Assembly (NCBI GenBank): GCA_964035575.1
Contig: OZ037835.1
Coordinates: forward strand, 1,240,001-1,304,000
From: Rhynchopus sp. YZ270_cl-10
Lineage: Eukaryota
Reading direction: 5' to 3'
DNA length: 64,000 nt
Shown here: in pieces, positions 4,659 through 44,216 of the stretch
Layout: each line of letters begins with the position of its first letter
How positions within the stretch are numbered: the first letter of the stretch is position 1
The notes under the pieces: model-generated
What the model saw: the letters and a program-made list of their open reading frames with translations, nothing else
Database searches by the model: none
What the model was told of the DNA's origin: nothing
Program-made: the position numbers and the translations under genes

Positions 4659-6305
4659 ATGGACCTGAACATCAAGGGTTTCGACACGAATCAGCACACA
4701 GTCGAGGTGGGTGCAGATGACACAGTGGAGGGCTTGCGGCGGAAGGTGGCGTCTGCAATGGGGTTGCCCGAAGACGGCTTTTGCATGAGTTTCGGAGACG
4801 AAGCGCTGGGAGAAGGAGCGGACATGACGCAGCTGAGTGCTGGTGACACAATCATCCTCACGAAGACGCAGAAGTACCAAGCCATTGCAGAGCTTCATGC
4901 GTTGGGTGAGACAGACCTGACCGCCGAGAGGTTGGAGAGTCACGGGCGTACGGGATTAGTATCTTTTTTTCGAGAGAACCCAAGAGCGGCCAGGTCCTGG
5001 ACAAGTACGTTGTGCTTTTAGACCTACAAACTGTCTGGGGTGGTGGGACCTCGGGGCGAAGGGTGCTTCCCGGGACCCCAATATCCTACCACAAGGAGCT
5101 CGAGTCGTGCATGGAATGCAGGGTACTCTGAGCCGATCACTTCCACAACTCCCAGATCCCAAGACCTCCACGGGGGGCAGGCCTCCACGGAAACCCGCGA
5201 CCGCCGACACCTTAGCTCCGTACTGCCTCTGTCTGTAACCTGCCGGTCCCCCACCTACCTACGCTTTTTGTGGTGTCTTTTTACGACGGTGGACCAAGGG
5301 GCTTTGCAGTGCAGTCAACGCCGACGGAGCGAGACTCGATTGTGACCGGGTGAAAAGGGAACCTTAGCCAGCGCTAACCAGCGGCAGTTTTGACTCAGGG
5401 AGGAGTTTCTCACCGCAGACTGGCGACACACCCCCACTTTTTCGGGGTGGCTGCATTCCTCTTCGGAACGGGGTGTTCCATCCTATTTTTAAAAACGTTT
5501 ATCCGCCGAGAGGTTGAAGAGTGTGGAGGATCCTGAGGTGGCGTGTTTGCTTCTGCAGGCGGAGGTTGCGACTGTCATTCCGATTGGGTTCTTGTCAAGC
5601 ACTTCGTTGACGAGACTTGATCTCAGTGCTGAGTCCATTGTGACTCACATTGGAGACAGCTTCCTGGAAGGCTGCACCTTGTTGACAAGTGTCGACCTCT
5701 CTGGGTTGAGCAATGTGACGCAGGTTGGTTCGTGGTTCCTTCAGAGCTGCATCAGTTTAACGACCCTGGATATATCTGCACTCAGCAACGTGACGCTGAT
5801 TTATGGCGGCTTTCTTTTCGGATGCAAGAGCTTAACCAACGTCCATTTATCTCCACTCAGCAACCTGACGCACGTTGGTGCGCACTTCCTTCAGGAATGC
5901 ATCTGCTTAACGACCCTGGATTTATATCCACTCAGCAATGTGACGTCGATTTTGAAGAACTTTCTTTCCGGCTGCAGCAGCTTAACAACTCTGGATTTGT
6001 TACCACTCAGCAACGTGACGCAGGTTGGTGTGGGCTTCCTTCAGAGATGCATCAGTTTAACGACCATCGATTTATCTCCACTCAGCAAGGTGACGCATGT
6101 TAGTAGTAGCGCTTTTGGAGGTACGTATTTTGCTGCGAAATGCACTTCGTTGACGAGCATTTACCTTTCCGGCTGCAGCAGTGTTGTGTCCAACGAAGTG
6201 AGGAACGACCAGAAGCTGAGGAAGCTTGTGGTTGAAGCACGTCCGAAACGAAGCAGAGACGAATCCCCCGAGCAAAGCCAGAAGCGACGGAGACACGCAC
6301 AATGA
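4659..6305 (+). CDS. Ubl-LRR subfamily A protein, ~354 aa; predicted exons 4659-4930 and 5513-6305
   Basis: Both halves are open and match 1661-2497. Removing GT..AG 4931-5512 restores ...TAERLKSVEDP... in frame. Has 3 more LRR units than the 1661 copy. Confidence 0.75.
4941..5502 (+). mobile_element. Short non-autonomous retroposon family 1 (SINE/SIDER-like), lacking its first 40 nt
   Basis: 20-bp TSD CCGCCGAGAGGTTG(G/A)AGAGT at 4921-4940 and 5503-5522; near-identical to 28110-28671; no convincing ORF. Confidence 0.85.
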
Positions 6306-11240: not shown

Positions 11241-13349
11241 TCCAACAGAATAAATTTTGGGAAGCTGGCACAAAGGTACCTCTCCCAGAATAGAGCATGA
11301 TGCCCCTTTTTTGCGGGGGGGGGACAAAAATAATTTACTCCGAAAACACGTTATTTTAATAGTTTGGAGACTCGTCACACCTCTGGCTTTTCTCTCGGTA
11401 ACTTTTGACCTAAAGAACACTGGTAAAAATGCACGACAAAAACGGGACAAAAAATGACGCCGAGCGAATTCCTTAGATGTCAGGAAGAGTTAGGATCATG
11501 CCTGGCAACAACGTGGAAAAAATTGTTGTTGTTCCAAAAGGCAACAAGACCACCCACAAGGGGTGTTGAATTGTGCACTGTCCGGGGGAGCACAAAGTTT
11601 TTTCCCTGTACACAGTGTACACATCTTTATCACTTTGGTCCCACGGGGACACATTTGGATACTGCACGCATGCAGAAGTGCCAAACATGTCCGCACGTGG
11701 AGTGGAGTGTCCACCATGTTTTCCTGGTTTCCAAAAAGCAGTTTTCTTGCACTCACTATTTGCCCCGGTCTGGCAATAGAAGTGGCTAACATTGTAATGA
11801 GTAGCATATACATACCGTTGTGATCCAAATGAGTAAGGCCACTAACAAAGTCCTCTGGACTTTTTTGTTGTGTCGACAATCGCCGGGTAATCCCGGAGAA
11901 TTAGGGTCTGGCCGAAGCCTTTTGTACTACGGAAGGTAGCAACCTTTCAGAGCAACTATGAGTAAGAAAAGGATCGGGTTTTGGAGGTTACAGTCCTCGT
12001 TTAAAAAGTTAAAGGTAGAGGTGGGGAAACTGTAGCTATAGAAATCGTTGTTGCAGTAGTGTAGACACCCGAGGATGCACCACTATGCTTTTCTTTGGTT
12101 GTATCGATCACCTACATGAGGTAGGATCTGTACACAATGTCGCCCGAAGGCTTTGTACTTAATTGGTATTTTTTATGTTAGAAGTCGCGTTTGGGTGCGG
12201 ACGTCTTTTTTCTGTTTTCTGTTTTCTGTACGGGTCTCGGTTCGCGGTGTGGTGCGAAAAGCTGCATACCATACCATAGGTGCTCATTTCACTACCAGGA
12301 CTCGAGTCGCGATGAGCCCATACGTGCCCCCAAACAGAAACGCAAAAACGACGACCGACGCAGCGCAGCTACTAAACCCTGCCCAGCCGCAGCCGTCGGG
12401 TAGAGAGCGTGGCAGCTGAACTGGCTCAGTTCAAAAGTGAAAACGATGTGTGTCGATCTCCCCCACACCTTTTCTCCCTTTTGCGCATCTCAATGGCGCC
12501 CTTTTTTTTGCACATTGCAAATAAAATTGAGTTTTTAAAACCAATTTTAAGCAAGGGTCACTCTCCAGACTCCGCCGTGTTCCTCCCCCTCTCCGACCCC
12601 TCACAGGAAATGGAAATCGTTCACGCACACGAGTGCGTGGATGCCCATCTCGCGGGGATGATGGCGCAGGCACGCCCCGCCAACGACGCCCGTATGCCCC
12701 ATCTGCACTCGCTGCACACCTGGGCCTTTAGTACCTGGGTAGTACGCGAACACGGCTGCGCGGCACGGGGCACGTACCTGCGGCTGGCCAGAGAGATGGA
12801 GAGGAAATCCTTTTCGGATTCCCACCACTCTCGCTGCCTCGAGCAGGCTGTCCGGGCGGGGGAAGACGAGCGCAAAGATCGCAGAAGTAAGAAACGGGGG
12901 GCAGGGGCAAAAGGACGTAGACAGAGGGGCAACGAGAGGGAGGGAAACGGGCTCTGCGGACCCAAGAGCCACCAAAGTGCCTGACTTGTTGCCCTAAAAA
13001 ATAAGTTCAGACGTGCCCTAAAATAAGTTCAGGGTTGCCCTACAAAAATTTTTAGGGCAAATCTGAACTTTTTCAAAATAGGGTAGGGTAAATCTGACTA
13101 TTCCCCTTATTATTACTTTTTATTTTCAAAAAGTTCTGTTGATCATCAACAGAACTTTGTTAGGTGGCGGCCCCCCTGGAATTGACCCTACCACCGACTG
13201 ATGCTTTGTGTATCGTGGTCACCCTTCTGTTGGGTGTCCCAGGGGGTGACCCCGATCAGGGGTGTGTTCTTCGTCCTCTCTTGTCACCCACAACCTCTGC
13301 ACAAAAAGAAACCAACACAAAAGACACATCAACAATACACAAACACACA

Positions 13350-19520: not shown

Positions 19521-20368
19521 GTAATCCATGTGAATATCTATCTAAAAAAGGAAGAGTTTCATTTTTTTAAAATCCTTGGTCACAATATACGCGAGCTTTC
19601 CTGCAGTCAACGCAGGGAAAGCATAATCAACGATGTGATACAGGATATGGGTGGTTCAGTGATTCCACAGAACCGACACCTTTGGTGTGTCTCAACCAAA
19701 GGCCAAATAATTTAAAAAGAGAGAATATTTGAAGTAAACGAAGAATAAGAAAGTGTCACCTACCCTTTTCATGACAACATCCTCCCCGCCCAACCCCCAA
19801 CTCCCAACATACCCGGGGCTTGGTGTTGCGAAGTGCGACGTGAATGCCCCATCACTCTCCGCTTTGAGCTTTCCCAGATTCACAGCAACTGCTCTGGTGC
19901 GGACAGCCTGCACCTTCGATGTAGTGACAGCAAAGCGAAGGCGTTGTGCGTATGATATGTGCTCATACAAGGCTTTCGAGATCGCATTCTTGTTTGTTCC
20001 GTTGTTGCGTTGTGTTGAGGATGATATTGGTCTTATGAACTCCCGTCTTCCCACAGTTTGTTGGCAAGGTTCTTGAAAAGGACTGCAGGCTTGTTGTCCT
20101 CCACACCCCACCACAACACACAGAGATCAGAACACAAAACCACAACAAAGACATGGACCTGAACATCAAGGGTTTCGACACGAATCAGCACACAGTCGAG
20201 GTGGGTGAAGATGACACAGTGGAGGGCTTGCGGCGGAAGGTGGCGTCTGCAATGGGGTTGCTTGAAGACGGCTTTTGCATGAGTTTCGGAGACGAAGCGC
20301 TGGGAGAAGGAGCGGACATGACGCAGCTGAGTGCTGGTGACACAATCATCCTCACGAAGACGCAGAAG

Positions 20369-20456
20369 GAGGGTGAAAGACAGCGCGCCGCCACGTGGTA
20401 CCCTCGGGGGGCGGCCCCCTCCGCCTTGGGGGGAGTCGCCTGCGAAAGCGCAAGTC
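20369..20456 (+). ncRNA. HDV-like self-cleaving ribozyme (predicted) at the LINE 5' end
   Basis: P1 GAGGGT/ACCCTC, P2 GAC-a-GCGC/GCGC-aa-GTC, P3 GCC/GGT, L3 GCCACGT, P1.1 CC/GG, P4 GGGCGGC../..GTCGCCT, J4/2 GCGAAA with candidate catalytic C20443. Starts exactly at the TSD boundary. Confidence 0.75.
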
Positions 20457-20486
20457 GGGCGGTCGCCAGGGAGCAATTCTGGTGCG

Positions 20487-22880
20487 ATGTGTGGAGGAGC
20501 AGTCGGGGTGGACGGGAACGGGGTCGGGGAGAAGGAGGTACTGGCGGAATACCTCAAGCAGTTTGAGCTGCGGATGAAGGAAGCCGGGGGGGCCGGAGAC
20601 TGCCAATTCAAGGCGGTCTCCATGGCAATGCACGGAGAGGCGACAGCGCACGTTGGGTTGAGGGCGATGTGTGTCGCTGAGCTGAGGAAGAGCGTGGGGG
20701 ACTGGACGGCGTTCGTGCAGGGTAGCTACCAAAGCTACTGCACCGCTATGGCGAAGCAGGGCACCTGGGGGGACCACCTCACCCTACAGGCGATGGCGTG
20801 CATGCTCGAAAAAGACATGCAGGTGTTCTCGGTACGCGACGAGAAAGTCCGAGTACTGAAGCTGCAGTCGGCAGGAGAGGGAAGGCGGGGGGCGGCAATA
20901 TCACTGGCATACCTCGGGGGGTGTCACTACATGTGCATACATGCCAGTGACAAGGGGGAGCTGTCGCTGGAGGAGCGAGCACGGAGGGCGATGTCCGGGG
21001 GGGCTCTGGAGTCGGAAGACGCGGAGTGGATGGTGCCGCAACCGAAATGCGTGGCAGATGGAGGATTCGCTCAAGGCGGAGCAAAGAAGAAGGCAACAGG
21101 GACGCTCACTCTGCTGCGGTCGTCATGGGTAGGGAAGGAACTGGTGTCGTGGGGGGAGGTAGGGGAAAGGTCCGCAGGGGTCTGCCTCGTACCGCCGGGC
21201 AAGGAGGCAGAGGCGGAGCAGAAGATACCACGCAGCCCAGGTGTGACGTGGGTGGGATTCGCCCCCTTCCCGAGATCAGGGGGGGTGAAGGTGCAGCAGT
21301 GTGCAATGGGAAGGGAAGGGAATGGGGGGGTATTTTTGGGAGCGACGAACACCACCGTCTATGTGGTGGGTGATGCCAGGCCAGGGAAGGATGGAGGGGG
21401 GAAGCGTGCAGCGGCGGTCCTGCGGATGGCGGAGATACACGTGGCGATGCGGAACGTGCAGGACCTCGCGTCGTCGGGGAGGTGCATGCGCGCTGCGGTG
21501 GAGAAGTGGGGAGGTAACCTGCGCGGCGATCCTGTCGTGCATGAGAAGTTGGTGCTCGGCAAGGCGGACGTTCGTGGCTGGGGCGCCTGGGGGGGTTGGA
21601 GTGCACCCGCATTCGCATCCGCATCCGCAGCCACGTCCACGCCCACTCCACCGCCGCATCCGCAGGCACATCCACCTCGGGCACAGCAGAAGAGGCCTAC
21701 ACCTGCGACGACGACATCACCCACACCGTCGGTCCCCACACCAGCAGCCGCACCGCAGGACGCTTCCCACCACCAGAAATGGGAGGAGCTGGAGCGTCGC
21801 ATGGGCGAAAGAGTGGACCGCCTGGTGGGAGAGCGCCTGCAGTCGCTGCTGAAGGAGACGGTGTCGTCAGTGACGGAGATGACGGCGCAGATACGGAAGG
21901 AGCAGGCAGAGCAGAGGAAGGACCAGCAGGCCTTCATGGATGGTGTCATGAGGCTGCTGACAAAAGCGGATACGACGCAACCAGCGTCGGACGCCGGTGT
22001 TGAACGGATGGAGGAGACGGTGCCCGCTAACCTGGCTGGCAAGAGAGACACCCGGAGTGGGTCTAGCGGCAGACAGAGCCCTCGCCGTAAGATGAAGATA
22101 GCGGAGCCGACACCCCCCGCCGCCTCTACCAATGTTGAGCAGCAGGGAACCGATAACGCCACCAATGACGAGGTGGGGGTGGGTGAAGATCCCGTTCTGC
22201 CGGATGGTGTCTCCGAACAAGCAGATGAAGCGTCAGACGCCGGTGATGTGCAGATGGAGGAGACGATGCCCGCTAACCTGGCTGGCAAGAGGGACACCCG
22301 GAGTGGGTCAAGCGGCATCCAGAGCCAAAGCCCGCGTCGCAGGAGGAAGGTAGAAGAGACGACAGCCCCCGCCGCCTCTACCAATGTTGAGGAGCAGGCA
22401 GACGCCATCGGTGCTGATGTGGTGGGGATGGGTGAAGAAGCCGTTCTGCCGGAGTGTGTCTCCCCAACCAGCAACGAGGACGGAGAAATGGCAAGTGCGA
22501 TGTCCTCCCCTGCACCCGTGCCGTTGTCACCCCCCTCCGATGCGATGGAAGCTGATGAGGTGGAGATCCCCCCCCCCGTCAGCATGGCAGGCAAGAGGGA
22601 CACCCGCAGCGGATCCAGTGGGATTGCACAGCTGAGCCCTCGGCGCCGTGCGAGGATTGACCTGCCCGCGCCCCAGTCCCGGACCCGGTCGCAATCACTC
22701 CCAGTGGAGTCAGAGTGGCTGCAGGAAGGCGATCTGATGGTCTACTGCGTAGACCAAATGCGGTTTGATGTGGTGGTGGTGAAGATGACCGTCGAGGGTG
22801 TGGAGATCGCGTTTGGTCCTCTCCAAGGACACCCAAACCGGACGGTACCGCGCAGCTGCTTGTTTGGCAGGACGAAGTGA
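20487..22880 (+). CDS. LINE ORF1 with N-terminal OTU-like cysteine protease, ~797 aa
   Basis: GAGDCQFKAVS...YC..M.KQGTWGDHLTLQA...LAYLGGCHY is the OTU pattern with Cys and His. Also a coiled coil and three internal repeats of AGKRDTRSGSSG..SPRR. Confidence 0.8.
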   Translation: MCGGAVGVDGNGVGEKEVLAEYLKQFELRMKEAGGAGDCQFKAVSMAMHGEATAHVGLRAMCVAELRKSVGDWTAFVQGSYQSYCTAMAKQGTWGDHLTLQAMACMLEKDMQVFSVRDEKVRVLKLQSAGEGRRGAAISLAYLGGCHYMCIHASDKGELSLEERARRAMSGGALESEDAEWMVPQPKCVADGGFAQGGAKKKATGTLTLLRSSWVGKELVSWGEVGERSAGVCLVPPGKEAEAEQKIPRSPGVTWVGFAPFPRSGGVKVQQCAMGREGNGGVFLGATNTTVYVVGDARPGKDGGGKRAAAVLRMAEIHVAMRNVQDLASSGRCMRAAVEKWGGNLRGDPVVHEKLVLGKADVRGWGAWGGWSAPAFASASAATSTPTPPPHPQAHPPRAQQKRPTPATTTSPTPSVPTPAAAPQDASHHQKWEELERRMGERVDRLVGERLQSLLKETVSSVTEMTAQIRKEQAEQRKDQQAFMDGVMRLLTKADTTQPASDAGVERMEETVPANLAGKRDTRSGSSGRQSPRRKMKIAEPTPPAASTNVEQQGTDNATNDEVGVGEDPVLPDGVSEQADEASDAGDVQMEETMPANLAGKRDTRSGSSGIQSQSPRRRRKVEETTAPAASTNVEEQADAIGADVVGMGEEAVLPECVSPTSNEDGEMASAMSSPAPVPLSPPSDAMEADEVEIPPPVSMAGKRDTRSGSSGIAQLSPRRRARIDLPAPQSRTRSQSLPVESEWLQEGDLMVYCVDQMRFDVVVVKMTVEGVEIAFGPLQGHPNRTVPRSCLFGRTK

Positions 22881-22892
22881 CGGGATGGTGTG

Positions 22893-25800
22893 ATGGTTGG
22901 CACAGGATTCGCTTCTTCGTGCGACGTTGGTGAAGGAGACGTTTTCTTCAAAACGGCCTCCCCAACAAGGGGTCAGCATCGTCCGCGTTCTACGGGCTGT
23001 ATGCTGTTGGGGGTACTGGGTAAGGGTGGTGGTGTTAGACGAAAGGTACGGCGAGGAGAGCGACGAGGGGTACGGCGAGGGGTGCGTCGAGGGGTACGAC
23101 AAGGGACGTGTCGAAGGGTGCGACGTGGGGCGTTCTTGGGTAGGGGGTCACTGCTGACATGTGGGGACGTAGAGGAGCATCCGGGTCCGTCGACCATGTC
23201 GCTTGGCACGGCAAACGTGACGTCTCTGAGGGCACACCCTGCGGTGGGGGAGTGGGATGTGGACGTTTGTGCTCTGCAGGAGGTGCGGCTCACAGAAGAA
23301 GAGATGAAGGGGGCAGCAAACGACGTAAAGGGGTATGGTGCCAAGCAGCTTCTCTTTGGTGCCCCTTGCAGACGAAGCCAGGGTTCAGACCCTCTGCGCA
23401 CGCGCACGCAGAATGGTGGAGTTGCGATCATGACGTGCGCTGACATACCGACCAGAGCAGTACCGCCACAATGTGCCCAACAAGCGTGGAACGAATGCCG
23501 CTTTACGCATGCGCAGGTGGCATATGGGAGCGGGGGACGCAACATCTCTGTGTTCTCGTTTTATGGTGTGTGTGCTGACAGCGACCGCACGGAACAGCTC
23601 CTAACAGACATTTTTGAAGAAGCAGCCAGCCTTGGGGACATACCGGTGTTCATTGCCGGAGACTTCAACGTAGAGGCTAACGAAAGTCTGGCCATTCGTG
23701 CGGCCATCTCCTCCGGCAAATGGGTTGATGCGGCAGATACCTACGCACAGCAGTTGGGTAAGGCAGCAGAGAACACATGCTACACCTCCACATCGTCTGG
23801 CAGACGTATCGACTTGGTGCTGGCGAACCACGTGGCTGCCCCTGCGATCTCCAAAGTGGTGGTCTGGAAAGAGAGCTGCCTCCCGGTACACAGACCGGTG
23901 GTGTTGACGTTAGACCTGACGCGGTACGAGCAGAAGGCACCGCAGGCACGCCCTCCCCTTTCTTTGATCGGCGACGACTGGACGAAATGGCCGGCAAAGA
24001 AGGAGAAGGAACTTGCAGCGAAGGTGATGCAGGAGAACGCTGCCCCTGAAGCTGACCTGACGAAGATGTCGGTTGAAGATCGCTGGGCACGCTTCTGCAA
24101 GATTGCGGAGGACTACCTGCTGAAGAGAGGTGCTGCAGACTCAGACCCGAAGCAACAACGCCACAGGGGGAGAGGGGAGGTGCAACCCGACGTTCTCCGA
24201 CATCGGACGGCCCGCATGGACTGCGACACGCCGGATGCTGTGAACCTGGAGCTCAACTGCAGAAGACATGTCGTCAGATGGAGCAGCTCATTGGTGATCG
24301 GAGGAAGCGCTTCGGTCAGCCATCTGCAGAATCGTTGAACGAACGGCAGCTGTGGGCGAAAATCCGCAAGAAGAAGCATCTACTGAAGAATGACACCTGG
24401 GACCTCGACCTTCCTGGGATAGAGGCGTTGTGTGGGCTCCTTGGCTGCCTGAAGAAGAGGGGTTTTGTCCTGCTGGAGCAACGGCGACGGGCCCGCATCA
24501 AGGAATGGCGCCGCACTATGAAGGAACACATGAAGGAGAACCCAGCGAAGGTGTTCTCGTTCCTGCGGAAGGCTACGTCGTCACACACCACGTTCCTGAA
24601 ACGGGAGGACGGCACGGTTACAGCTAACCTCCAGGAGATGGATGAACTGCTCATGGATGACCGTGCTTGGGGTGGGGTGTTCCGGATGTACGACGATTCC
24701 GAAGAACCTGCGTGGACGACGTTCTTTGATAGGTTCAAGGAACACATTCCTGAAGGGACCCCTTGTGTATGCGAACCCCTGACCGCCGACGACCTCCGTA
24801 CGACCATCGGCAAGATGAAGCGGAAAAAGGCGGCAGGCCTCGATGGGTGGAGGGTGGAGGAGCTGAAGGAACTGCCTTTGACACTGCTGGAGGAACTCGC
24901 GCGCTGCCTGAACCTGATCGAGGATACTGGGAACTGGCCCAGGGTGATTGCGAGGGCGTTGGTGGTGCTCATCCCCAAAGGAGAAGGCGAGGAGCCCCTG
25001 AAGCAGCGACCCATAACCATCACCAGTGTGATGTACAGGTTATGGGCGGCGACTCGACTCCGCAAAGTGGCGACGTGGCAGGAATCCTGGATTCACGAGC
25101 GGCAACACGGCTTCCGGAACAAACACGGAACCGAAGACCTGCTGTGGTTTCTCTGTGCGAAGATGGAGGAGGCTCTGATAGACGACACACCTGTCTATCT
25201 AGCCTCCTTCGACTATCAGAAGTGCTTTGACCGTGTTCCCCAAGAGATCATGTTCCAGCTCGTCGAACGGTTGGGTCTTCCCGACAACATGATGCGCCCC
25301 ATCCGGGGTATATACAAGAAGCTGGGGAGGCGTTTCAAACTTCCGGCAGGTCTTGGCAAAGAATGGTTTGCGACGAATGGTATCCTCCAAGGATGCCCAC
25401 TGAGCGTAATCTTCCTGAATGCGCTGGTGGCGGTGTGGATGAACGGGGTGGAGAAGGAAACGGGCACGCAGGGGCTGGCGTATGCTGACGACACCAACCT
25501 CCTGACGAAGACCCTCGACCAGCTGCGAGCGGGTGTCGCCTTCACCGGACACTTTGCAGACTTGACGGGACAACGCGTCCACGCGGGGAAGAGCACGTGG
25601 CAGAGCAACCGTCCTGATGAAGAGGAAACTGTGCAGATGAACGGCGCGGATCTTACTCGCGTCGAGAAGTCGGAGTGCCTGGGGGCGACGGTGCAGGCCC
25701 GACAGGCTGGGACGCCCACGCTCCCGACGAAGTTGGAAGACACCATCGACGCATGTGGACCGCTAGCAGGTAAGGTGGGATGTCTCCCGCTGACTCAAGG

Positions 25801-27916
25801 TGAGAAAGCAGGCATCATGCAGGCTGCAGTGATGTCGAAATCTGTGTACGGTATCACGGTGCAGGACCCACCTGGGAAATACGTGAACAGTCTTGCAACT
25901 GCAGTGGAGAAAGGGGTCCACGGCGTGAACAAGATGAACCGAAGAAGCGTACCGGTCATGCTGAATGTCTTCGAGAAAGGCCATCTGCTCGACCCCTCGG
26001 TGGCATTCGACTACAGAAGGATCATGACGTGGGCGGCGATGATACGCAAATCGGATGAGATCTGTTTGCTGGTCGAAAAGTGCAGGTCACGTGCGAAAGC
26101 GAAGCAGGCGAAGACTGGAGGACCCATCGGGTTGATTGCGCGAGCCCTCAGCCGCCTTGCGTGGTCATGGATAGACACGACAAAAGTGAAAACGCACGAT
26201 GGGAGCATCGTTGATGTGAAGACGGTAAGCTTGGGTAGACTGGGCCACGTTGTGCGAGAACGGATGTTCTTCATTCGACTCTCCCGTACGAAGACGACTG
26301 CGAAGGTCAATGGCAAAGGCAGAGCTAACCTGAAGGGTATTGAAGCGGGGGTGGATAAGGAGAAAACCCTTGCTCTCACCCGAAGCAAAACTTTGACGGA
26401 TTACGAGGCGGGGACGCTACGACACATTGTAGCTGACGGTGCGATAACGGGGGTGCGACTTGCGAGAGCGCGCATACGGGACTCGGCCATCTGCGTTCAC
26501 TGCGAAGCGGGGGTGGACGAAAACCATAAACACTTGTGGTGGGAATGTGAAGCATGGAGTAGCATTCGTGCGGAGTACCCCTTGCTGTTGGACATTGACA
26601 GAACGACCTGGCCAAACTGTCTCGCTATCTGTGGCATGTGCACACCGGACACACCTTTGGACTGCGCCCGTGTTGCAGACCTGCAGAAGATGATGGTGCG
26701 CATCCTCATCGCACGCTCCAAGTGGAGCAGACCGGAAGCGGCGAACCCGCGACTGCAAGAAGACCGATACCCGTGGACGTGGGCGCCGGAGTTGGACACG
26801 ACGACGCAACACGCGAACAGTTTGGTGGACTACACCCCCCTGAAAAGGAGGTGGCCGTATGGACGTGCTCTGCTGCTGGCGTTTGCCTCCTGGCTGGGTG
26901 GTTTACAGTGGAGCGACGAAGCTGGACGTGAAGTCTCCCACATGGAGCTGCTCATCGACTTCGAGGTTGCCACAGGGATGGACATCCGACCTGGGGACAA
27001 GACCGGCAGAATAGCGCCGAAGCTGAAGCAGCCGAGGGTTGGGACTGGGGAAGAAGACAACAATGGGGGGGAAGACGACGGGAGTGGGGAAGACGACGAT
27101 GATGACGACGTGGTGCCAGTAGCGCTGGCCCACAGAGAAATGGCGAAGACGACCACCTTTGGGCATATGTTGGCTTCACTCAGAACCTTTTCGGAGAGCT
27201 CTCTCCATCCGGGGAAGGTGAAGGTAACGCATGTTCTCGCTTCGTTTGGGGCGAACGCCATCACAGGCATCGACCGCCGTCCTATTTTTGCCGGCGGAGA
27301 AGAGACGTTGAAGGCATTGCGTGCGCTATACGATGCTGGTGTGGCGTACCGTCTGCAACGCAGCTCCGAAGGCATGTCTGAGGTGGAGCTCCGTGGTGGC
27401 GATAGAGCGAGAGGTACATGGATGGGGGAGTATTCTGCTGAGACGGCGTACCCCTCCACAGAAGTTAGGGGCAGGAGGGCACTACCATTCATCCAGCGGG
27501 CTGAACAGGAGACATCTGCGCATGCTCGCTACCGACACCATGAGCACGTGCGTCCAGGGGACGCACCCGTGAAGGCACCTGAAGGAGCGGTTCCGATCTT
27601 CCAGTTTGCGATATGTGTGCTGCACCGGAAGACGAAGTGTGATGCCTGCTCGAAGAACGCCCAGGCAGACCTGATGCATTGCTGCTTTGCGCACCACTCC
27701 GACGACGACGGGTTACCGATCCGACACGAAGCATGCACTAAGCATAGACTCTCGAGGTGCGGGAACTGTGTGCAAGAGAAGAGTACGCTGGATCACTGCT
27801 GCCGCCGCCACCACGACACCTCGAAGGGGCGACAGACGACGCTGGGAGGCTTCTTCAAGAAGAAGCAGACGAAGCAGAAGGATGGGCACAGCAGGGGCGG
27901 TGATGGACTTATGTAA
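22893..27916 (+). CDS. LINE ORF2: 2A-like peptide, AP endonuclease, reverse transcriptase, CCHC finger, C-terminal Cys/His domain; one frameshift near 24250
   Basis: APE motifs TANV, ALQEV, AGDFN, RIDLVL, PVHRPV. RT motifs KAAGLDG, QHGFR, DYQKCFD, GILQGCPLS, YADD. Zinc finger CVHC..ENHKHLWWEC. Confidence 0.9.
23139..23189 (+). other. 2A-like (StopGo) peptide GRGSLLTCGDVEEHPGP
   Basis: Differs from T2A GRGSLLTCGDVEENPGP only by N>H; lies immediately before the APE domain. Confidence 0.9.
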
Positions 27917-28069
27917 CATCACCTCCACGATGTATTGTATCACCTATCTCGGATAGGGGTGCATGCATCGAAAACGGACCCCCACCTCACGAAGACGCAG
28001 AAGTACCAAGCCATTGCAGAGCTTCATGCGTTGGGTGAGACAGACCTGACCGCCAAGAGGTTGGAGAGT

Positions 28070-28671
28070 CCCGACGGCGGACCGCCCCCCATAGCACATT
28101 TTTGCGGTGCACGGGCGTACGGGATTAGTATCTTTTTTTTGAGAGAACCCAAGAGCGGCCAGGTCCTGGACAAGTACATTGTGCTTTTAGACCTACAAAC
28201 TGTCTGGGGTGGTGGGACCTCGGGGCGAAGGGTGCTTCCCGGGACCCCAATATCCTACCACAAGGAGCTCGAGTCGTGCATGGAATGCAGGGTACTCTGA
28301 GCCGATCACTTCCACAACTCCCAGATCCCAAGACCTCCACGGGGGGCAGGCCTCCACGGCAACCCGCGACCGCCGACACCTTAGCTCCGTACTGCCTCTG
28401 TCTGTAACCTGCCGGTCCCCCACCTACCTACGCTTTTTGTGGTGTCTTTTTACGACGGTGGACCAAGGGGCTTTGCAGTGCAGTCAACGCCGACGGAGCG
28501 AGACTCGATTGTGACCGGGTGAAAGGGGAACCTTAGCCAGCGCTAACCAGCGGCAGTTTTGACTCAGGGAGGAGTTTCTCACCGCAGACTGGCGACACAC
28601 CCCCACTTTTTCGGGGTGGCTGCATTCCTCTTCGGAACGGGGTGTTCCATCCTATTTTTAAAAACGTTTAT
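28070..28671 (+). mobile_element. Short retroposon family 1, full length (602 bp)
   Basis: 19-bp TSD with 2 mismatches at 28051-28069 and 28672-28690; same site as 4941-5502; 5' end can fold HDV-like. Confidence 0.85.
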
Positions 28672-28863
28672 CGCCGAGAGGTTGAAGAGTGTGGAGGATC
28701 CTGAGGTGGCGTGTTTGCTTCTGCAGGCGGAGGTTGCGACTGTCATTCCGAATGGGTTCTTGTCAAGCACTTCGTTGACGAGACTTGATCTCAGTGCTGA
28801 GTCCATTGTGACTCACATTGGAGACAGCTTCCTGGAAGGCTGCACCTCGTTGACAAGTATCGA

Positions 28864-29465
28864 GGGGACAAAAACGTGAGGTGGCAGCCCCCCGGCATTT
28901 TTGCCCTGGCGTCCCCGGATATAATCTCTTGTTTGAGTGAACGAAGGCCACGCGTGGGATGGTTGCATTGCACTTTTGCAAACCCGGGCACATGATACTG
29001 GAGGGTCCAAAGCAACTGGAGGAGGTGTATGCTGGGCTTTTTGTGCCCTCAGGGATTTAAGCGACCCTGCACCTACTTTACGACCATGCACAGCTTTTGC
29101 TTTTCTTTTCTTTGCTTTTTGTAGGTGCTAACCTGCGGCAGTGGTTTGCATCAGTTGGGTGTTCCACTCACCGCAGTTTAGAGAATTAGGAGATGCCAGT
29201 CATTCGTTCCTCCCATTGGAATGACTGGTGGTTTTATTGTTGTTTATTTCTTTTGACGCTGCCAGAGTGCGGACCTTGAACTGGCTTATATACTAACCTA
29301 GGCCACCAGCGGTGGTATACGGCCCCTGTTCACTTAGGTGTCGCTTCTTTGTTGGGTATAAGTCAGCAAATGGGATCAAGCCACTCTCTGGCACACCGTG
29401 ATGCCATCCTTCCCTTTTGCTGGTTTTTCTTTTTGCGGGGGTGGATCACGTTTTTCAAGTTTATT
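28864..29465 (+). mobile_element. Short retroposon family 2 (602 bp)
   Basis: Perfect 18-bp TSD CTCGTTGACAAGTATCGA at 28846-28863 and 29466-29483; non-coding; 5' end can fold HDV-like. Confidence 0.85.
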
Positions 29466-31995
29466 CTCGTTGACAAGTATCGACCTCTCTGGGTTGAGAA
29501 ATGTGACGCAGGTTGGTGCGTGGTTCCTTCACACCTGCATCAACTTAACGACCCTGGATTTATCTGCACTCAGCAATGTGACGCAGGTTGGTCAAGGCTT
29601 TCTTTTCGGATGCAAGAGCTTGACAACCCTAGATATATCTCCACTCAGAGATGTGACGCAGGTTGGTGCGGGTTTCCTTTGGATCTGCAGCAGCCTAACA
29701 ACCCTGGATTTATCTCCACTCAGCAACGTGACGTATATTAGTAGCGCTTTTGGAGGTACGCATTTTGCTGCGGACTGCACTTCGTTGACGAGCATTTACC
29801 TTTCCGGCTGCAGCAGCGTTGTGTCCAACGAAGTGAGGAAGGGCGATCTGAGGAAGCTTGTGGTTGAAGCACGTCCGAAACGAAGCAGAGACGAATCCCC
29901 CGAGCAAAGCCAGAAGCGACGGAGACACGCACAATGACGACGTGGTGTGTTGGTGGGAGGGCAGCACCTCCCCGAGGTGGAGGGTCTCTGGCAGTATGTC
30001 TGCTGCGTCCTCTGGTTCGGAGAAGAAGAGGGGCACAGTCTTGCTCACCGTGGCACAGACTACTACTTGGTGCGAGAGGAGAGCTGTGCTGAGCAAGACG
30101 TTCCACACATTGTGTTATGTTACGCGGTGCTGCAAAATAATTCCCACAACTCATGTCTTATTCATTACAACGTACCTCCCCACCCAATCCCCCTTTTTTC
30201 TGCAATTCATCACTCTGAACTCGTTGACACCACGTGGTCGTTCACTGTCTTCTTGGTAGCTTGCACGAAGAGGTGTGAGGTGTGAGGGGAGGCGAGTGGC
30301 TTCCGTTGTGTGCTCTGATGTACTGATTGCGTGCTTTCACTTGATGGTGTGACTGGGGGGACTCAGGGGGGAGGACGCGCTTTGCTGAGCTTGGGGGGCT
30401 TGTGTGGAAACCTTTTGCAGTGAACGGCTGTCCTTGGGTGGGAGGTGGAGGTGCACAGTGTTGTGAATGTGGATGGGTGTGGGTGTGGCGCTTCCCTTCA
30501 TCGTTTGTGGTGATGATGGGAGGGGAAGCTGTGGCCGGCCGTGGGGTGCTTTCGTGCAATTTGTCTGGCACCTCAGCTTGTCTGTGGTTGCAGCACGAGA
30601 GCACCTTTGGCGTTCTTCCTTGCGTGGGGTGGGTGGAGACAGCGGAGTGTCCCATGGGAGGCACTGCATCTTGCAGCAGGGCTGGGATGGCGGCACTCAG
30701 GTGCGTGATGGGGTTGGGTTTTGAAGTGATGGGGTAGGGGGAAGTGGACAACACTGTGTGATGTGAAGGCTGCGCTTAATACAAGCAGGCCTGTACAGCA
30801 GCACAGTTTTCATGGGTGCAAAAAGGTAGTAGGATTGGTTGGGTTGGGTTTGCCTGCAAGTGGGTGGGATGGTTTTGTGGCGATGATGGCTTTGTGGTTT
30901 GTGTCTGCTGCAGTGCATCTTTCATGGGTGCTAGCATCATATTGGTTGTAGTCTTGGCGTTGGGATGGTTTTACAACCCTGTGCAAGGTGGTGAACGTTG
31001 CACAGACCTGTGCAGCATGCAAGGAACCTAGCGCCTTGATGATATCACCACAGTGTTCCTTCAAAACTCCACACAACGCTTTTGGTTTTTGGGAGACACA
31101 CAAGGTGCGAGGTTCTATGATATGCACGGAACCACTCTGCACCCTAGTTATAATACATGGAGAAACGTTTCGCACCCGAAACTGGGGCTGCACTTCATTT
31201 GCACTTTTTGTGTACTTTATGTACGTAATACAGTGGTGTGTGAAATAGGACGTGCCATGCCAAAATAAAAAGGGGTAAAACGTACAGAGGGAACCCTGTT
31301 CAGGGGAAGGGGAGAAACATTATTTTGGTGTACGAATTGCAGGGAATTCGGTTGGGGGTGGGCAACAAAAAGCCAACAGACACTATAGGTGTCGGGTACA
31401 ACAAAGTCGGGACACAGTAGGGAGGGGTGTGGGCAAGGGTAGATGGCCACTCTCAAAACAGCTGTCAGGGATGGGATGGGAAGGAGGGGGGTCGCTTCGC
31501 TCAGGTAGTGTTGTGCCACCATTTCTTATGCAACTTTCAACCGGGTTCACATCGCAGTTGGAAAGGTTGGTGGGGTAGGATGCAATTGTAAAGGCAAACG
31601 CATTCTGCATCCTTTGTATGGCAGAGTCCTGCTCGTAGTCCTTCTGAGCATCCAGGGAAGACGAGGTCCCCTCCCAACTTTCTTCGTCGCTGAATTTGGT
31701 TGATTCGCAACACTTCATGACTTTCCATTTTAAAAAAAAACATTGGAAAAATAAAGCCAATGCAGGTGAAGCCCCCCAGCGTCTTCACAGCCCATCTCGC
31801 CTTTTTGGCGTAGACACGTTATGCAGAAGAACCCAGGTGGCAACCGCATGCCTACTGCACGTATGGTCGCAGGTTGAAGTGGGATGCGTTGTGCTGTGTG
31901 CTTCATGGGGGGACAGGGAGCAGGCCTCTGGGTAATTTTTCGGCCGATGTTGGCCTTGGGGGGTGGGTGGTACCCCCCCCCCCCCCCCCCCCCCC

Positions 31996-37427: not shown

Positions 37428-40412
37428 TTGTAAAAAGACAGGGTCCTGGCAAAAAAGACCAAAAAAGACCATAAAAGACCAAAAAAGGCCAAAAAAGACC
37501 ATAAAAGACACAAAAAAGACACAAAAAAGACATAGAGGGACTCTACCTTGCAGAAAAAAAAGCACTCCACGCGTTTTGAACACAAATCGCAGGTTTTCCT
37601 AAAGCTGAATCTAAATTCTGAAACTAAAACTAAAACTAAAAATGGTGGCTTTTTCCTTTTGACTCCGTGGTTAACCTCGTGTGAGGTTGCGCGGAGTTCG
37701 CAGTCAGGCCAGGGAGCCACGTAACAAGGCTCGACTGCCACATAGTGGGGGGAGATCTGTGCAGCCTGTATGTTCCCCCCGATTTTCGTGGTAAATGGGG
37801 AGGCGCTTCCGTTTAACGGCAACCCACAAGAGTAGAACAACAACCAAACTTTTGAGAAACAGACGCCAATGAGACCTAGAGTCTCTCTTCTTACTTGTGT
37901 GCTACAGACAAACATGACAACGCTAACCACGACTGCCACGGCAGAGCGGGGTCCCAAACGGTTCACTGGGGGGGATCCACATAGATACAGAAAACAAAAA
38001 ATACGAAAGCAAGGAAGAAAACCAGTAAAAAAAAAAAAAAAAATGGAAAACCTTTCACCACTCAACCGACTCTTCATCTTCATCGCTGTCGTTTCCTTCA
38101 GCAGGAGCTGCCTCGACTTCAGGAGCTTCTGCTTCTGCTTCTGCGTCGCAGTCAATCACAGGTTCTCCTGGTTTGGCACCCTCGATTTCAAACCAGGAGT
38201 CACCTTTGCCAGTGCGGAGGCAACTGTGAATCTGCGTCAGCTTCGTCACTCGCGCCGAGAGGAGTCGATTCCTCCGCAACTGCGACATCCAGCCCATTGT
38301 GCTGAATTGCCGTTCGAGTTCGGCACTCGAGGCTCGGATCCCCGACACTCTGTACCCAATCCTGCAGAGCTTCACGTCTTTCTCGCTCCCTCCATCGCTC
38401 TGCACCTCCAGCAAGAATATCCTCCACCACTCCTCTGGTGTCTTGGTCTTCGCAAGATCCCACATCCCGTCATTTGCAAAAATGCCGGATGCAGTGCGAA
38501 ACTCGATCAGACACGCCGACAGTGCCGCGCCCCCCAGTTTTTTGAGGTAGGCAGAGGCGTTCTTCTTCACCTCTGCACACGGAGCCCAACCTGCCAGTTT
38601 GGTCAGCGGGTGTTTTGCTGGCAGGTCCTTTGCTTCTTTGTACACCTGTGTGATTGTTGTTGTTGTTGTTGTTGGGATCAATATGGCTGAAGTATACCTG
38701 AAAAAATGGGTTGAGAAGAGTCGCAGCGGAGAAAACACCGTCCTCGTGAGTGATGTAGCGAGAAACACGCACTTGGATTTTTTTAATAACGTTCTCCATT
38801 TTCTGTTTGTCTTCCACCGTTGCCAAAGCTGCCTTCGTCTCTTTTGCTGCACTCAGAGCTTGCTCAAGAAGCGGAATCACAAACCCAATCCTACACGAAT
38901 CCGACTGCAACAAGTTGACCACAACACCAGCCTTCTCCACAAATTTGTGAATCGCGCGAATCAGAGGCATGCTGTTGCAGACTTTAAGAATATCTGGGCA
39001 GCGGGCGAGTGCTTCCTCATCATCGGCAACAAGCAACAGAGCCTCTCGGTATTGCGCGACGAAGTCGAACAGCTTTGACGTTGTAGTCCATCTGGTAATC
39101 GCCATAAGCTTTGGCGCGTTCGTTCGCTGACTCAGTTCAGTCTGTTTTTCCTTCAAAACAGCCCTGAGGTAGTCAACATTCTTCAGAGACGCTACAACGC
39201 TGTTCAGCAACTTTGTCACGTAGTTGAATTCCTGTCCCGTTTCGTTGCCTTTGGATTTCTTGGTCCCGAGACAGTCATTCACCATGCGTTGTACAGTATG
39301 GGCAGCGCAGACAATGGTGTGCACGTCAATGTTCTTTTTTTTTAGTTCGGCTTTGAAGAGTTTGTTTGCCTTGGTAGCTGTCGTATCTCCATCTGAAATG
39401 AGTGCAACAGCTTTTTTTTGAAATTTTTCTGGTGTTTGCGTGAGGTGTGAAAGAAGCTCCTGCGCGTTGTGTTGTTTTTGTTGTAAGATCCCGCTGTTCA
39501 CGATCAATCCTGCCTGCTCCCCTGCTGTTCCGGCGCACGCAAAAACTTTTTCTGCTCGCGAATTTTTCCAGGTGTCCGACTGGAGGGAGATGTGCTCGTT
39601 TTTTGCGAGCTTATCAAACTTCGGAACACAGATGGTGGTGTGCACCTTGTCCAGCAAAGTTGTGGAGATGACGTGTCGGCTGGGTATGTGTTCTTTTTTT
39701 AGCCCTGGTCTCGTTGCCATCATGGCCTCAATAAAAAGTGGACTATCGACTACCGAGAAGGGCACCCCTGCGGCGAACACGAACTTCGCCCAGGCGAGAT
39801 GCATCTCCTCGATCTCCTTCGCGTTCGGTGCAGGGATGCAGGGGATGCGGGTTTGGCTCTTTTCGAGCTTCGCCCTCTTTGCAGCAGGCGCTTCAGCCGG
39901 TGCCGTCGTGTCGGAGCGGGATCTTTTCGCCCGCTCTTCTTCCTCTTCGATCCTCTGTTTCGCCCTGTCACTCTTCTTCGGGCAGTCCTCCACGATGTGC
40001 TTCTTCATCCGTGTGGCTGAAATGCCGTTCTTCGCCAACCTGTACCCGCAGCCCTCCCCCTTGCACTCGAGGTAGTCAACCTCGTTCTCCGTCACCTCCA
40101 CGTACTCCTCGCGGCTCCAGCAGCTCTTCCTCCCTGGCATTTTATTATTATTCCCCTGATTAGTCTGTGTTGATACTCTGTAAGTGTGGGTGTTTGTGAT
40201 GTTTGCGGGATCCCTTTTCAGCTCAGCTCCATGGGCTCATAAGCACCATAACCCCAAAAACGTGCGCTCAAAAAAGACCAAAAAAGACCGAAAATGCTGG
40301 CAAAAAAGACCAAAAAAGACCGAAAATGCTGGCAAAAAAGACCAAAAAAGACCAAAAAAGACCAAAAAAGACACATCAAAAAAGACACAAAAAAGACACT
40401 GCCACAACACTG
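37423..40412 (-). mobile_element. Autonomous hAT DNA transposon
   Basis: TIR CAGTGTTGT/ACAACACTG, flanked by G runs; AAAAAAGACC subterminal repeats at both ends; encodes a transposase. Confidence 0.9.
38055..40140 (-). CDS. hAT transposase, ~677 aa; exons 40140-38698 and 38645-38055
   Basis: BED finger (C..EGC...MKKHIVEDC), SDTW, ISDG, CAAH, RW, ATLLNP and ASSAELERQFS motifs. A 52-nt phase-0 GT-AG intron (38697-38646) joins the two overlapping ORFs. Confidence 0.9.
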
Positions 40413-40422
40413 GGGGGGGGGG

Positions 40423-41611
40423 TAGGTGGGGGCAAAACCCCTATTTTTTTGAGGCATTTTGACTTTTTTGGACTTCCGCGCAAAGTACGTACAAACCACC
40501 CCTCATACCCACCCAGAAATGGGTCAGAAACACCCTGTGACCCGAAAATCCATGCTAAGGGCGACTCAGAATATGAAAAAATGCAAAAAAATAGTGAAAA
40601 AGTGGCCTTTTGACGGTTTTGGCCATGTTGGGTAAAATGGCCATTTTTGGACAAAAAAATCAAAAAAACAGCAAAATTTCGACGTCATGACAGCTGCTTG
40701 GGCACAAACCTACCCCAGGGAGGTCCTGTGAGTCCATTCCGACCTGTTTTGGACACTTTAGGTACTTTTTTTGGCCGTTTTTTGGTGTTTTTAGGTCAAA
40801 AAATACCCTGGACTTTACCCTGGACGTCCTGGGCCGCGACTTGCGCCCTGCTTTTGGACCCACTCTGGGCCAAAAAATGGGTGAAAACCCCCGAAAAAGC
40901 ACTCCGGGAACCCAGATAGTTCCAAATATCCACCAGAAACCCACCCAAACACCTCAAAAACATGCCAGAAAAATATTTTTAAAAACACACTTTTTCAAAT
41001 AAGTCATTATGGAACCTGCCCAGATGAACTTTTTGAAAAAAGTGTGTTTTTGAAAATATTTTTCTGGCATGTTTTTGAGGTGTTTGGGTGGGTTTCTGGT
41101 GGATATTTGGAACTATCTGGGTTCCCGGAGTGCTTTTTCGGGGGTTTTCACCCATTTTTTGGCCCAGAGTGGGTCCAAAAGCAGGGCGCAAGTCGCGGCC
41201 CAGGGACGTCCAGGGTAAAGTCCAGGGTATTTTTTGACCTAAAAACACCAAAAAACGGCCAAAAAAAGTACCTAAAGTGTCCAAAACAGGTCGGAATGGA
41301 CTCACAGGACCTCCCTGGGGTAGGTTTGTGCCCAAGCAGCTGTCATGACGTCGAAATTTTGCTGTTTTTTTGATTTTTTTGTCCAAAAATGGCCATTTTA
41401 CCCAACATGGCCAAAACCGTCAAAAGGCCACTTTTTCACTATTTTTTTGCATTTTTTCATATTCTGAGTCGCCCTTAGCATGGATTTTCGGGTCACAGGG
41501 TGTTTCTGACCCATTTCTGGGTGGGTATGAGGGGTGGTTTGTGGGTACTTTGCGCGGAAGTCCAAAAAAGTCAAAATGCCTCACCCGTCCTGAAGGTTTT
41601 GCCCCCACCTA
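40423..41611. mobile_element. Foldback element, ~540-bp inverted arms, TAGG..CCTA ends
   Basis: TIR TAGGTGGGGGCAAAACC; ~40452-40995 mirrored at ~41035-41583. Confidence 0.9.
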
Positions 41612-43014: not shown

Positions 43015-44216
43015 TAGGGGATACGACTCCAGCCATTTTGGCTGGGACCAAACGCACGGAAAATTCATTTGGCATTATCTGGCCATCTCCAAGGCAACTG
43101 CGGGTGAAAAACACCCTCAGAGTGGGTCACAGGGGGCCTGTGGGTCGAAAAACGACCCAGAAGCCACCCCAGAATACAAAAAAATGGAAAAAAATAGTGA
43201 AAAAACGGCTTTTTTCACGTTTTGGCCACTTTGGGCAAAATAGCGATTTTTCGAGAAAAAAATCAAAAACCGGGATATTTTTTGACATCACAAAGCCTCC
43301 TTTGGCACAAATATACCCCAAAAGTGGCCTGTGAGTCCATTCCAACCTGTTTTGGACATATTTGACACTTTTGGAAGTGTTTTTTTGGTGTTTTTAGGTC
43401 AAAAAAATGCCCAAGACGTCCCCAAGACATCCCCAAGACACTTTGCACACCCCCTGTTACGGTCATATTTTTTTCGTTTTTTTGCCTGAAACCCCCAAAA
43501 TACCCCTCCCGGACCCCACATAGTCCCGAATATCCATCACACACCCACTCAGAGTGAGTAGAAGCACCCCAAAAAAAATATTTTTTAAAGCCCTTCAACT
43601 TCAACATGGATGCTGCCGAAACTGAAGCACAATTTTAGGGCTTTAAAAAATATTTTTTTTGGGGTGCTTCTACTCACTCTGAGTGGGTGTGTGATGGATA
43701 TTCGGGACTATGTGGGGTCCGGGAGGGGTATTTTGGGGGTTTCAGGCAAAAAAACGAAAAAAATATGACCGTAACAGGGGGTGTGCAAAGTGTCTTGGGG
43801 ATGTCTTGGGGACGTCTTGGGCATTTTTTTGACCTAAAAACACCAAAAAAACACTTCCAAAAGTGTCAAATATGTCCAAAACAGGTTGGAATGGACTCAC
43901 AGGCCACTTTTGGGGTATATTTGTGCCAAAGGAGGCTTTGTGATGTCAAAAAATATCCCGGTTTTTGATTTTTTTCTCGAAAAATCGCTATTTTGCCCAA
44001 AGTGGCCAAAACGTGAAAAAAGCCGTTTTTTCACTATTTTTTTCCATTTTTTTGTATTCTGGGGTGGCTTCTGGGTCGTTTTTCGACCCACAGGCCCCCT
44101 GTGACCCACTCTGAGGGTGTTTTTCACCCGCAGTTGCCTTGGAGATGGCCAGATAATGCCAAATGAATTTTCCGTGCGTTTGGTCCCAGCCAAAATGGCT
44201 GGAGTCGTATCCCCTA
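43015..44216. mobile_element. Foldback element with 580-bp inverted arms and a 42-nt spacer
   Basis: 43015-43594 is the reverse complement of 43637-44216; ends TAGGGGATACGACTCC. Confidence 0.92.

Follow-up and report, generated by a model that had tools for sequence, protein, structure and literature searches.

A Rhynchopus LINE that recurs at the end of the Ubl domain of Ubl-LRR genes and bears an OTU domain in ORF1

An APE-type LINE of Rhynchopus sp. YZ270_cl-10 interrupts a Ubl-LRR gene at the end of its Ubl domain, and members of the same LINE family are found at this site in paralog after paralog. The copy described here lies in a 64-kb stretch of DNA (the window; assembly GCA_964035575.1, contig OZ037835.1, positions 1,240,001 to 1,304,000; coordinates below are those of the window). 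We consider it probable that this is a LINE family that repeatedly hits the Ubl end, likely leaves the host transcript by means of a predicted ribozyme and has in ORF1 an OTU domain, likely inherited, whose substrates would be the proteins of the element itself. The recurrent target site is a stronger result than the convergent OTU capture that had been the focus of the original prediction.

Insertion at the end of the Ubl domain

The host gene starts with an ATG at 20153, and its 5' part (20153-20368, + strand) extends for 216 nt, exactly 72 codons, up to the LINE junction; this head matches the Pfam ubiquitin family (E=1.3e-6), and its Ubl domain has no C-terminal Gly-Gly. The LINE (20369-27984, +) is flanked by identical 19-bp target-site duplications (left copy 20350-20368, right copy 27985-28003, both +), beyond which the remainder of the gene (28004-29937, +) is split by two inserts of about 600 bp (28070-28671 and 28862-29465). 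An intact paralog matches the left flank at 212 of 216 nt and the right flank at 65 of 66. The original prediction that the element breaks the Ubl-LRR gene at about codon 72 is thus borne out by the 216 nt before the junction and by the 19-bp duplication. The window contains five Ubl-LRR genes, and the interrupted one holds three inserts. The short element at 28070-28671 has a 99.3% identical counterpart at the same site of another Ubl-LRR paralog (4941-5502), one of the two lacking 40 nt of 5' sequence, and the insert at 28862-29465 bears its own duplication; several retroposons may have a hot spot in this gene family. An Atlas search with the host gene yielded only leads below 0.9. Contig depth, which we do not take as copy number, increases toward the LINE 3' end and across the host gene.

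The location at the end of the Ubl domain had been correctly predicted and was treated as incidental, yet it is recurrent. Ten junctions, those of the window copy and of nine other records, involve three LINE subfamilies and all fall within about one codon of one site, so that independent insertions at one relative position across many paralogs, the mark of an RHS-type hot spot, are found here too. Six records (P0004, P0005, P0006, P0010, P0012 and P0013) contain full-length family-B elements behind six different Ubl heads ending at the same Lys, and their element parts are 99.9-100% identical over 680 aa. The other three (P0163 and P0381, of subfamily A2, and P0287, of the window LINE's own subfamily) join a Ubl head to an ORF2 that is 5'-truncated at three different positions. 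As identity among the nine aligned Ubl heads spans 49-94%, the insertions are independent. In the DNA reads, one contig joins 20366 to 27927; a different contig contains the last 58 nt of the LINE and the target, and continues into another Ubl paralog. The site might have been hit by chance in a large family, or the shared junctions might stem from one old insertion spread by duplication or gene conversion, as five such genes in 64 kb and three inserts in one of them could suggest, but the protein data contradict this and make it very improbable, since near-identical young elements sit in heads as low as 49% identical, three subfamilies and three truncation points are involved, and the naive probability of nine further matches within ±3 nt of the site in an 837-nt CDS is about 2e-19.

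Ten element proteins that extend upstream by at least five residues were found without a Ubl query; eight have a Ubl there, whereas in P0002 and P0008 no Ubl can be recognised in the frame concerned. This protein count is skewed to Ubl targets because these provide an in-frame ATG, and for the main ORF2 cluster the counts rest on 15 of its 34 members, among the matches listed. Targeting is not exclusive, because some short 3' pieces sit in non-Ubl flanks: in four long contigs of run X1 the LINE is represented by no more than its last 57-90 nt, with non-matching flanks. Short pieces consisting of the last 58 nt or so (27927-27984), with the terminal hairpin, are also seen in unique flanks, and they would be either extreme truncations or a SINE derived from the LINE tail. 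Separately, a contig of run X5 follows a Ubl paralog to the same site (20369) and there enters unrelated sequence for at least 255 nt; this loose end has no match in the window or among the protein records compared, and is possibly another element using the Ubl site.

The OTU domain and its relatives

The LINE is 7.6 kb long, full length but defective, and has no poly(A) tail. ORF1 (20487-22880, +) consists of an OTU, an alpha/beta region, a coiled coil and a low-complexity tail, a layout taken from the model of P0007; the frame is open from 20331 to 22880 with its first ATG at 20487, and about 186 codons present in P0002 are missing near 21573. A 2A-like peptide with the H variant of the NPGP motif (23163-23189, +; canonical N in the sister subfamily) immediately precedes the APE endonuclease of ORF2 (23241-23870, +; PF03372, E=2.5e-11). 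The frame is broken near 24250, at a place with four additional bases in other copies, and this break parts the APE from the portion of ORF2 bearing the RT (24077-27916, +; RT about 24971-25621; PF00078, E=1.5e-19), and another copy, P0293, has an intact ORF2 of 1664 aa. At the 3' terminus lies a hairpin (27928-27969, +; z=-3.3, 0/200 shuffles), which is likely an RT recognition signal. The combination of APE and RT, a target duplication and 5'-truncated copies is that of an APE-type non-LTR retrotransposon.

The OTU domain (20523-20954, +) displays the motifs GDCQF (20595), WGDHLTLQA (20766) and CHY (20922), with the Cys codon at 20601 and the His codon at 20925, and scores 47.9 bits against Pfam PF02338 (E=2.3e-12; curated cut-off 23.3). 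Its AlphaFold model (pLDDT 95) superposes on OTUD1, OTUD5 and OTUD3 with TM values of 0.83-0.88, the best Foldseek match being OTUD1 (E=2e-12, TM 0.88); in the whole-protein model of ORF1 (mean pLDDT 52), the OTU is the sole match among the matches listed. That ORF1 starts with an OTU, as first read from its motifs, therefore stands, and profile score, fold, Cys and His place the domain in the PF02338 family. Cys and His are kept in all nine members of the ORF1-OTU clade. In contrast, Asp at Cys-3 occurs in none of the nine compared with 126 of 130 other OTUs, and Asp/Asn at His+2 in none of the nine compared with 104 of 124, so the residues of canonical OTU deubiquitinases are absent from the clade. 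The LINE OTU has the fold, Cys, His and WG motif in common with OTUD1, OTUD3 and OTUD5, but its Asp is at Cys-1, not Cys-3, and it lacks the Asp/Asn at His+2. OTU-like enzymes with only a dyad are on record (PMC10318531). The OTU variants listed, five of five, fall at third codon positions.

We propose that the proteins on which the OTU in ORF1 would act are those of the element itself. A weak deubiquitinase that protects the element's own ribonucleoprotein is the role we favour, though with slightly less than even confidence, because the OTU sits in ORF1 while the 2A-like peptide serves ORF2; the deubiquitinating activity of TYMV PRO is reported to stabilise its own polymerase. A quite different role, that of a cis leader or processing protease left from ancestral polyprotein processing rather than a deubiquitinase, is a weaker candidate, perhaps one chance in a few. 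Among relatives, the slot before the APE is occupied by an OTU in P0026, P0219, P0242 and P0192, by a 2A-like peptide in others and by a ubiquitin ending in a di-glycine motif in P0279 and P0304, which suggests that these are interchangeable processing modules and hints at a processing ancestry; the reduced active site of the OTU and the cleavage role proposed for Helentron OTUs point the same way. However, the OTU of our LINE is in a separate ORF1, a 2A-like peptide is already present ahead of the APE, the fold is nearest to the true deubiquitinases OTUD1, OTUD3 and OTUD5, and neither P0002 nor P0004 contains an LxGG or LxxGG site. A broader host counter-defence is improbable, and so, to the same degree, is an inactive or purely binding domain. 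The LINE polyproteins P0279, P0304 and P0305 have their own N-terminal ubiquitin, with the di-glycine end adjoining the APE, and in P0019 and P0059 an OTU is fused to a GIY-YIG domain.

A second retroelement in the window (55235-63163, +) is CRE/SLACS-like, with an RT recognised by Pfam and motifs, read by eye, that we take to be of RLE type. A 40-nt sequence just upstream of its ORF (55219-55258, +) presumably resembles a euglenozoan spliced leader; neither Rfam nor the literature consulted confirmed this identity. Partial copies of the 40-mer lie at 12026-12050 (-) and 12154-12169 (+), on opposite strands about 100 nt apart. The element has OTU-like domains near 57700-58130 and 61650-62050 (+), both with Cys and His, which stay below the Pfam cut-off (E=0.02-0.04) and are found by a custom profile in the window's six frames (E=1e-5 and 4e-3). 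The CRE/SLACS clade is defined by an RT, an RLE and location in the spliced-leader gene (PMC12278014). It had been proposed that two retroelement clades in the window carry deubiquitinases; two types do have OTU-fold domains, the CRE ones weak; the ORF1 OTU, with its non-canonical active site, is a putative deubiquitinase.

The ORF1 OTUs form a clade (support 99/95) that includes family B, DIPPA_28703 of Diplonema papillatum, P0038 and P0094, all with ORF1s alignable over about 700 aa or more (about 730 aa for DIPPA_28703), as well as two short records and one OTU-APE-RT polyprotein. P0038, P0094, P0370 and P0372 are ORF1 homologues with an additional N-terminal domain ahead of the OTU; by eye this domain resembles an RNase H, with no Pfam support in the three scanned. 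The window RT groups with D. papillatum elements (99), and the named RT relatives are almost all from this species (best 53%), apart from one Rhynchopus-labelled transcript and one Polarella record, which, like the spliced-leader-like 40-mer, suggests a diplonemid host; no direct link was found between DIPPA_28703 and a D. papillatum RT-bearing ORF2. D. papillatum, EukProt transcriptomes and metagenomes all contain relatives of the OTU-APE-RT type. A second type of OTU heads the polyprotein in 8 of the 42 RT relatives in the tree, and it must have been gained, lost or moved repeatedly, because at least four changes are needed. In the best tree, the CRE OTUs join the polyprotein-type OTUs on long branches; the first (OTU1) resembles polyprotein-type LINE OTUs and the second (OTU2) has the signature of the ORF1 clade, a mixture that fits exchange of OTUs between elements. 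These trees left out P0339 (duplicate family), P0189 (truncated) and 13 short matches, and the careful tree included 35 of 134 other OTUs.

The original prediction read the OTUs as a host-specific convergence, in which the host's retroelements captured deubiquitinases independently against a ubiquitin-based defence, and it named an OTU tree as the test. LINE and CRE OTUs do fall into separate starred groups in the best tree, the polyprotein N-terminal OTU requires those repeated changes, and the Ubl-LRR family is expanded in this host. However, with groups named after the trees had been seen, neither one common origin for the 17 element OTUs (p=0.39) nor a union of the CRE OTUs with the ORF1 OTU clade (p=0.38 and 0.33) is rejected by AU tests, so independent capture is possible but unproven; nor is it confined to the window's host, as the same OTU-ORF1 layout is present in D. 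papillatum and OTU-APE-RT proteins in other samples. The exchange signatures of OTU1 and OTU2 and the frequency of OTUs in DNA transposons of unrelated hosts weigh against it as well, and we regard the capture scenario as unlikely. To judge from the alignments and trees, the LINE ORF1 has likely inherited its OTU from a distant ancestor and not acquired it recently.

A metagenome scan gave 31 loci, of which 30 were examined; one (L011) has an OTU, and none of the 30 has the Ubl target or an ORF1 homologue. The OTU of L011 (5801-6583; Pfam E=3e-12) lies right before the APE of a LINE that is one of several LINE copies clustered there. ORFs annotated as LINE, SLACS and R2/jockey are reported in the genome paper of D. 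papillatum, which defers rigorous classification of transposable elements; an OTU search of its supplement gave one row, a cellular orthogroup. We found no description of an OTU in a LINE in the literature searched (Repbase, most subscription journals and bioRxiv supplements lay outside the search), nor did any of the matches listed mention diplonemids. Elsewhere in the window lie a hAT-like transposase fragment (38470-40236, -; DUF659, with a score under the cut-off) and, at 40450-41583 and 43015-44216, long inverted repeats (380 and 580 nt) that are almost perfect.

The 5' end of the LINE and the in-frame fusions

At base +1 of the LINE begins a match to an HDV-like ribozyme descriptor (20369-20451, +), with P1 at 20369-74/20400-05, P2 at 20383-86/20448-51, P3 and L3 at 20387-99, GG at 20406-07, P4 at 20409-41 and a putative catalytic C at 20443. 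The descriptor, built from a consensus after the sequence had been inspected, has its sole match on both window strands here, and matched 0 of 5000 local shuffles and 0 of 200 whole-element shuffles. P1 and P4 are present in the MFE fold (nested-fold z-score 0.2), and the stems are short (6 bp for P1, 4 bp for P2). Rfam gave no match at gathering score in the window, and only a chance match at the LINE 5' end; no homologous ribozyme was found in the 30 metagenome loci, where the one internal match is likely chance. The codons under the predicted ribozyme have 21 of 27 residues common to families A and B, compared with 53-56% identity in the OTU region. On this footing, we think it likely that the sequence at 20369 is a working ribozyme; base 20369 had also been considered as an extra base, which was dropped in favour of the +1 reading. 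The ribozymes of L1Tc and ingi cleave before +1, freeing the elements from polycistronic RNA, and R2 exits its host co-transcript via a 5' ribozyme.

We propose that the APE nicks a conserved motif at the Ubl end, on the bottom strand before 20350 and on the top strand at the Lys codon, and that the redundant Ubl-LRR family offers a landing site that is both tolerated and transcribed, much like the RHS genes in the case of ingi. Cleavage at +1 would then give a precise 5' end and remove the Ubl codons from the transcript. In family B, six of eight ORF1 records with an intact start are fused in frame to a Ubl, and these Ubl-OTU-ORF1 fusions are probably by-products of a cut and a 5' end whose positions are both fixed. 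They could instead be the working form of the element, the LINE borrowing a host trans-splicing signal, start codon and Ubl; in addition to the family-B count, the first 120 nt of the LINE have no stop in the ORF1 frame, and the host Ubl weakly matches the UBXL domain of OTU1 (E=0.02). However, none of the four family-A ORF1 records is fused, fixed cut and 5' end would set the frame without selection, and none of 25 Ubl ends examined has a Gly-Gly, so the target Ubl is not an obvious OTU substrate. A Ubl-OTU fusion in the window copy was itself rejected, since its ORF1 frame differs from the Ubl frame, and the host frame reaches a stop at codon 138. Because ribozyme cleavage would detach the Ubl codons, the in-frame fusions are probably incidental, and a working fusion is unlikely. 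More doubtful still is a scheme in which the Ubl-LRR genes are ubiquitin-linked anti-retroelement sensors, the LINE homes to the Ubl/LRR boundary and removes the LRR, and uncleaved transcripts yield a Ubl-OTU-ORF1 counter-defence deubiquitinase.

Relation to known elements and significance

The closest precedent is the insertion of ingi/RIME into RHS genes. Together with L1Tc/NARTc, these elements occupy a fixed site in the 5' coding region of the RHS multigene family, making pseudogenes (PMC7563717), with a specificity that is relative, not absolute (PMC5814959). Our LINE is likewise a euglenozoan APE-type LINE at a fixed site in a protein-coding multigene family. It also resembles ingi and L1Tc in its 2A-like peptide before the APE, including the N-to-H variant described for such elements (PMC3708506), and probably in a 5' HDV-like ribozyme (PMC4035085), the Pr77 hallmark of the ingi/L1Tc clade, which is predicted by descriptor in our case. 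In contrast to ingi-clade elements, which lack ORF1 (PMC3708506), the window LINE has a separate ORF1 with an OTU, a 3' hairpin, a 19-bp duplication and no poly(A) tail, and its target is the Ubl-LRR family, cut at a domain boundary. The ingi-clade features of a single ORF without ORF1, an RNase H and poly(A) are absent from it; no RNase H was detected in P0293 or P0300, and some relatives have one. The RT tree consists solely of database relatives, and the likeness to ingi is one of features. R2 and CRE/SLACS elements also hold fixed positions in multicopy genes, and R2 has a 5' ribozyme, but these elements combine an RLE with RNA genes, whereas the window LINE combines an APE with divergent protein-coding paralogs.

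Ulp1 domains occur in NeSL LINEs and Josephin domains in Dualen LINEs, and the targets of site-preferring LINEs are mostly RNA genes or repeats. Among DNA transposons, OTU or Ulp1 domains of unproven function are found in Ginger1, Mutator and Helitron/Helentron elements (PMC2836005, PMC4067079). The LINE OTU is similarly a ubiquitin-type cysteine protease in an accessory position in a mobile element; unlike those domains, it stands at the start of a LINE ORF1, and the third residue normally found in the active site is missing from it.

In summary, the interest of this element lies in its use of a protein-coding family as target and in an OTU that extends across the clade and can be tested, rather than in a demonstrated arms race. 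With the RHS hot spot, trypanosomes provide the main protein-coding case found in the literature, and the Ubl-LRR family adds a second euglenozoan one. As one codon is targeted across paralogs as low as 49% identical, these genes form a natural target library for APE specificity, and they present a case in which retroelements prune a gene family at a domain boundary. In addition, OTUs are spread through a large, little-described clade of protist LINEs, alternating with 2A and ubiquitin leaders before the APE, and the role of transposon-borne ubiquitin proteases thereby becomes testable, also in D. papillatum.
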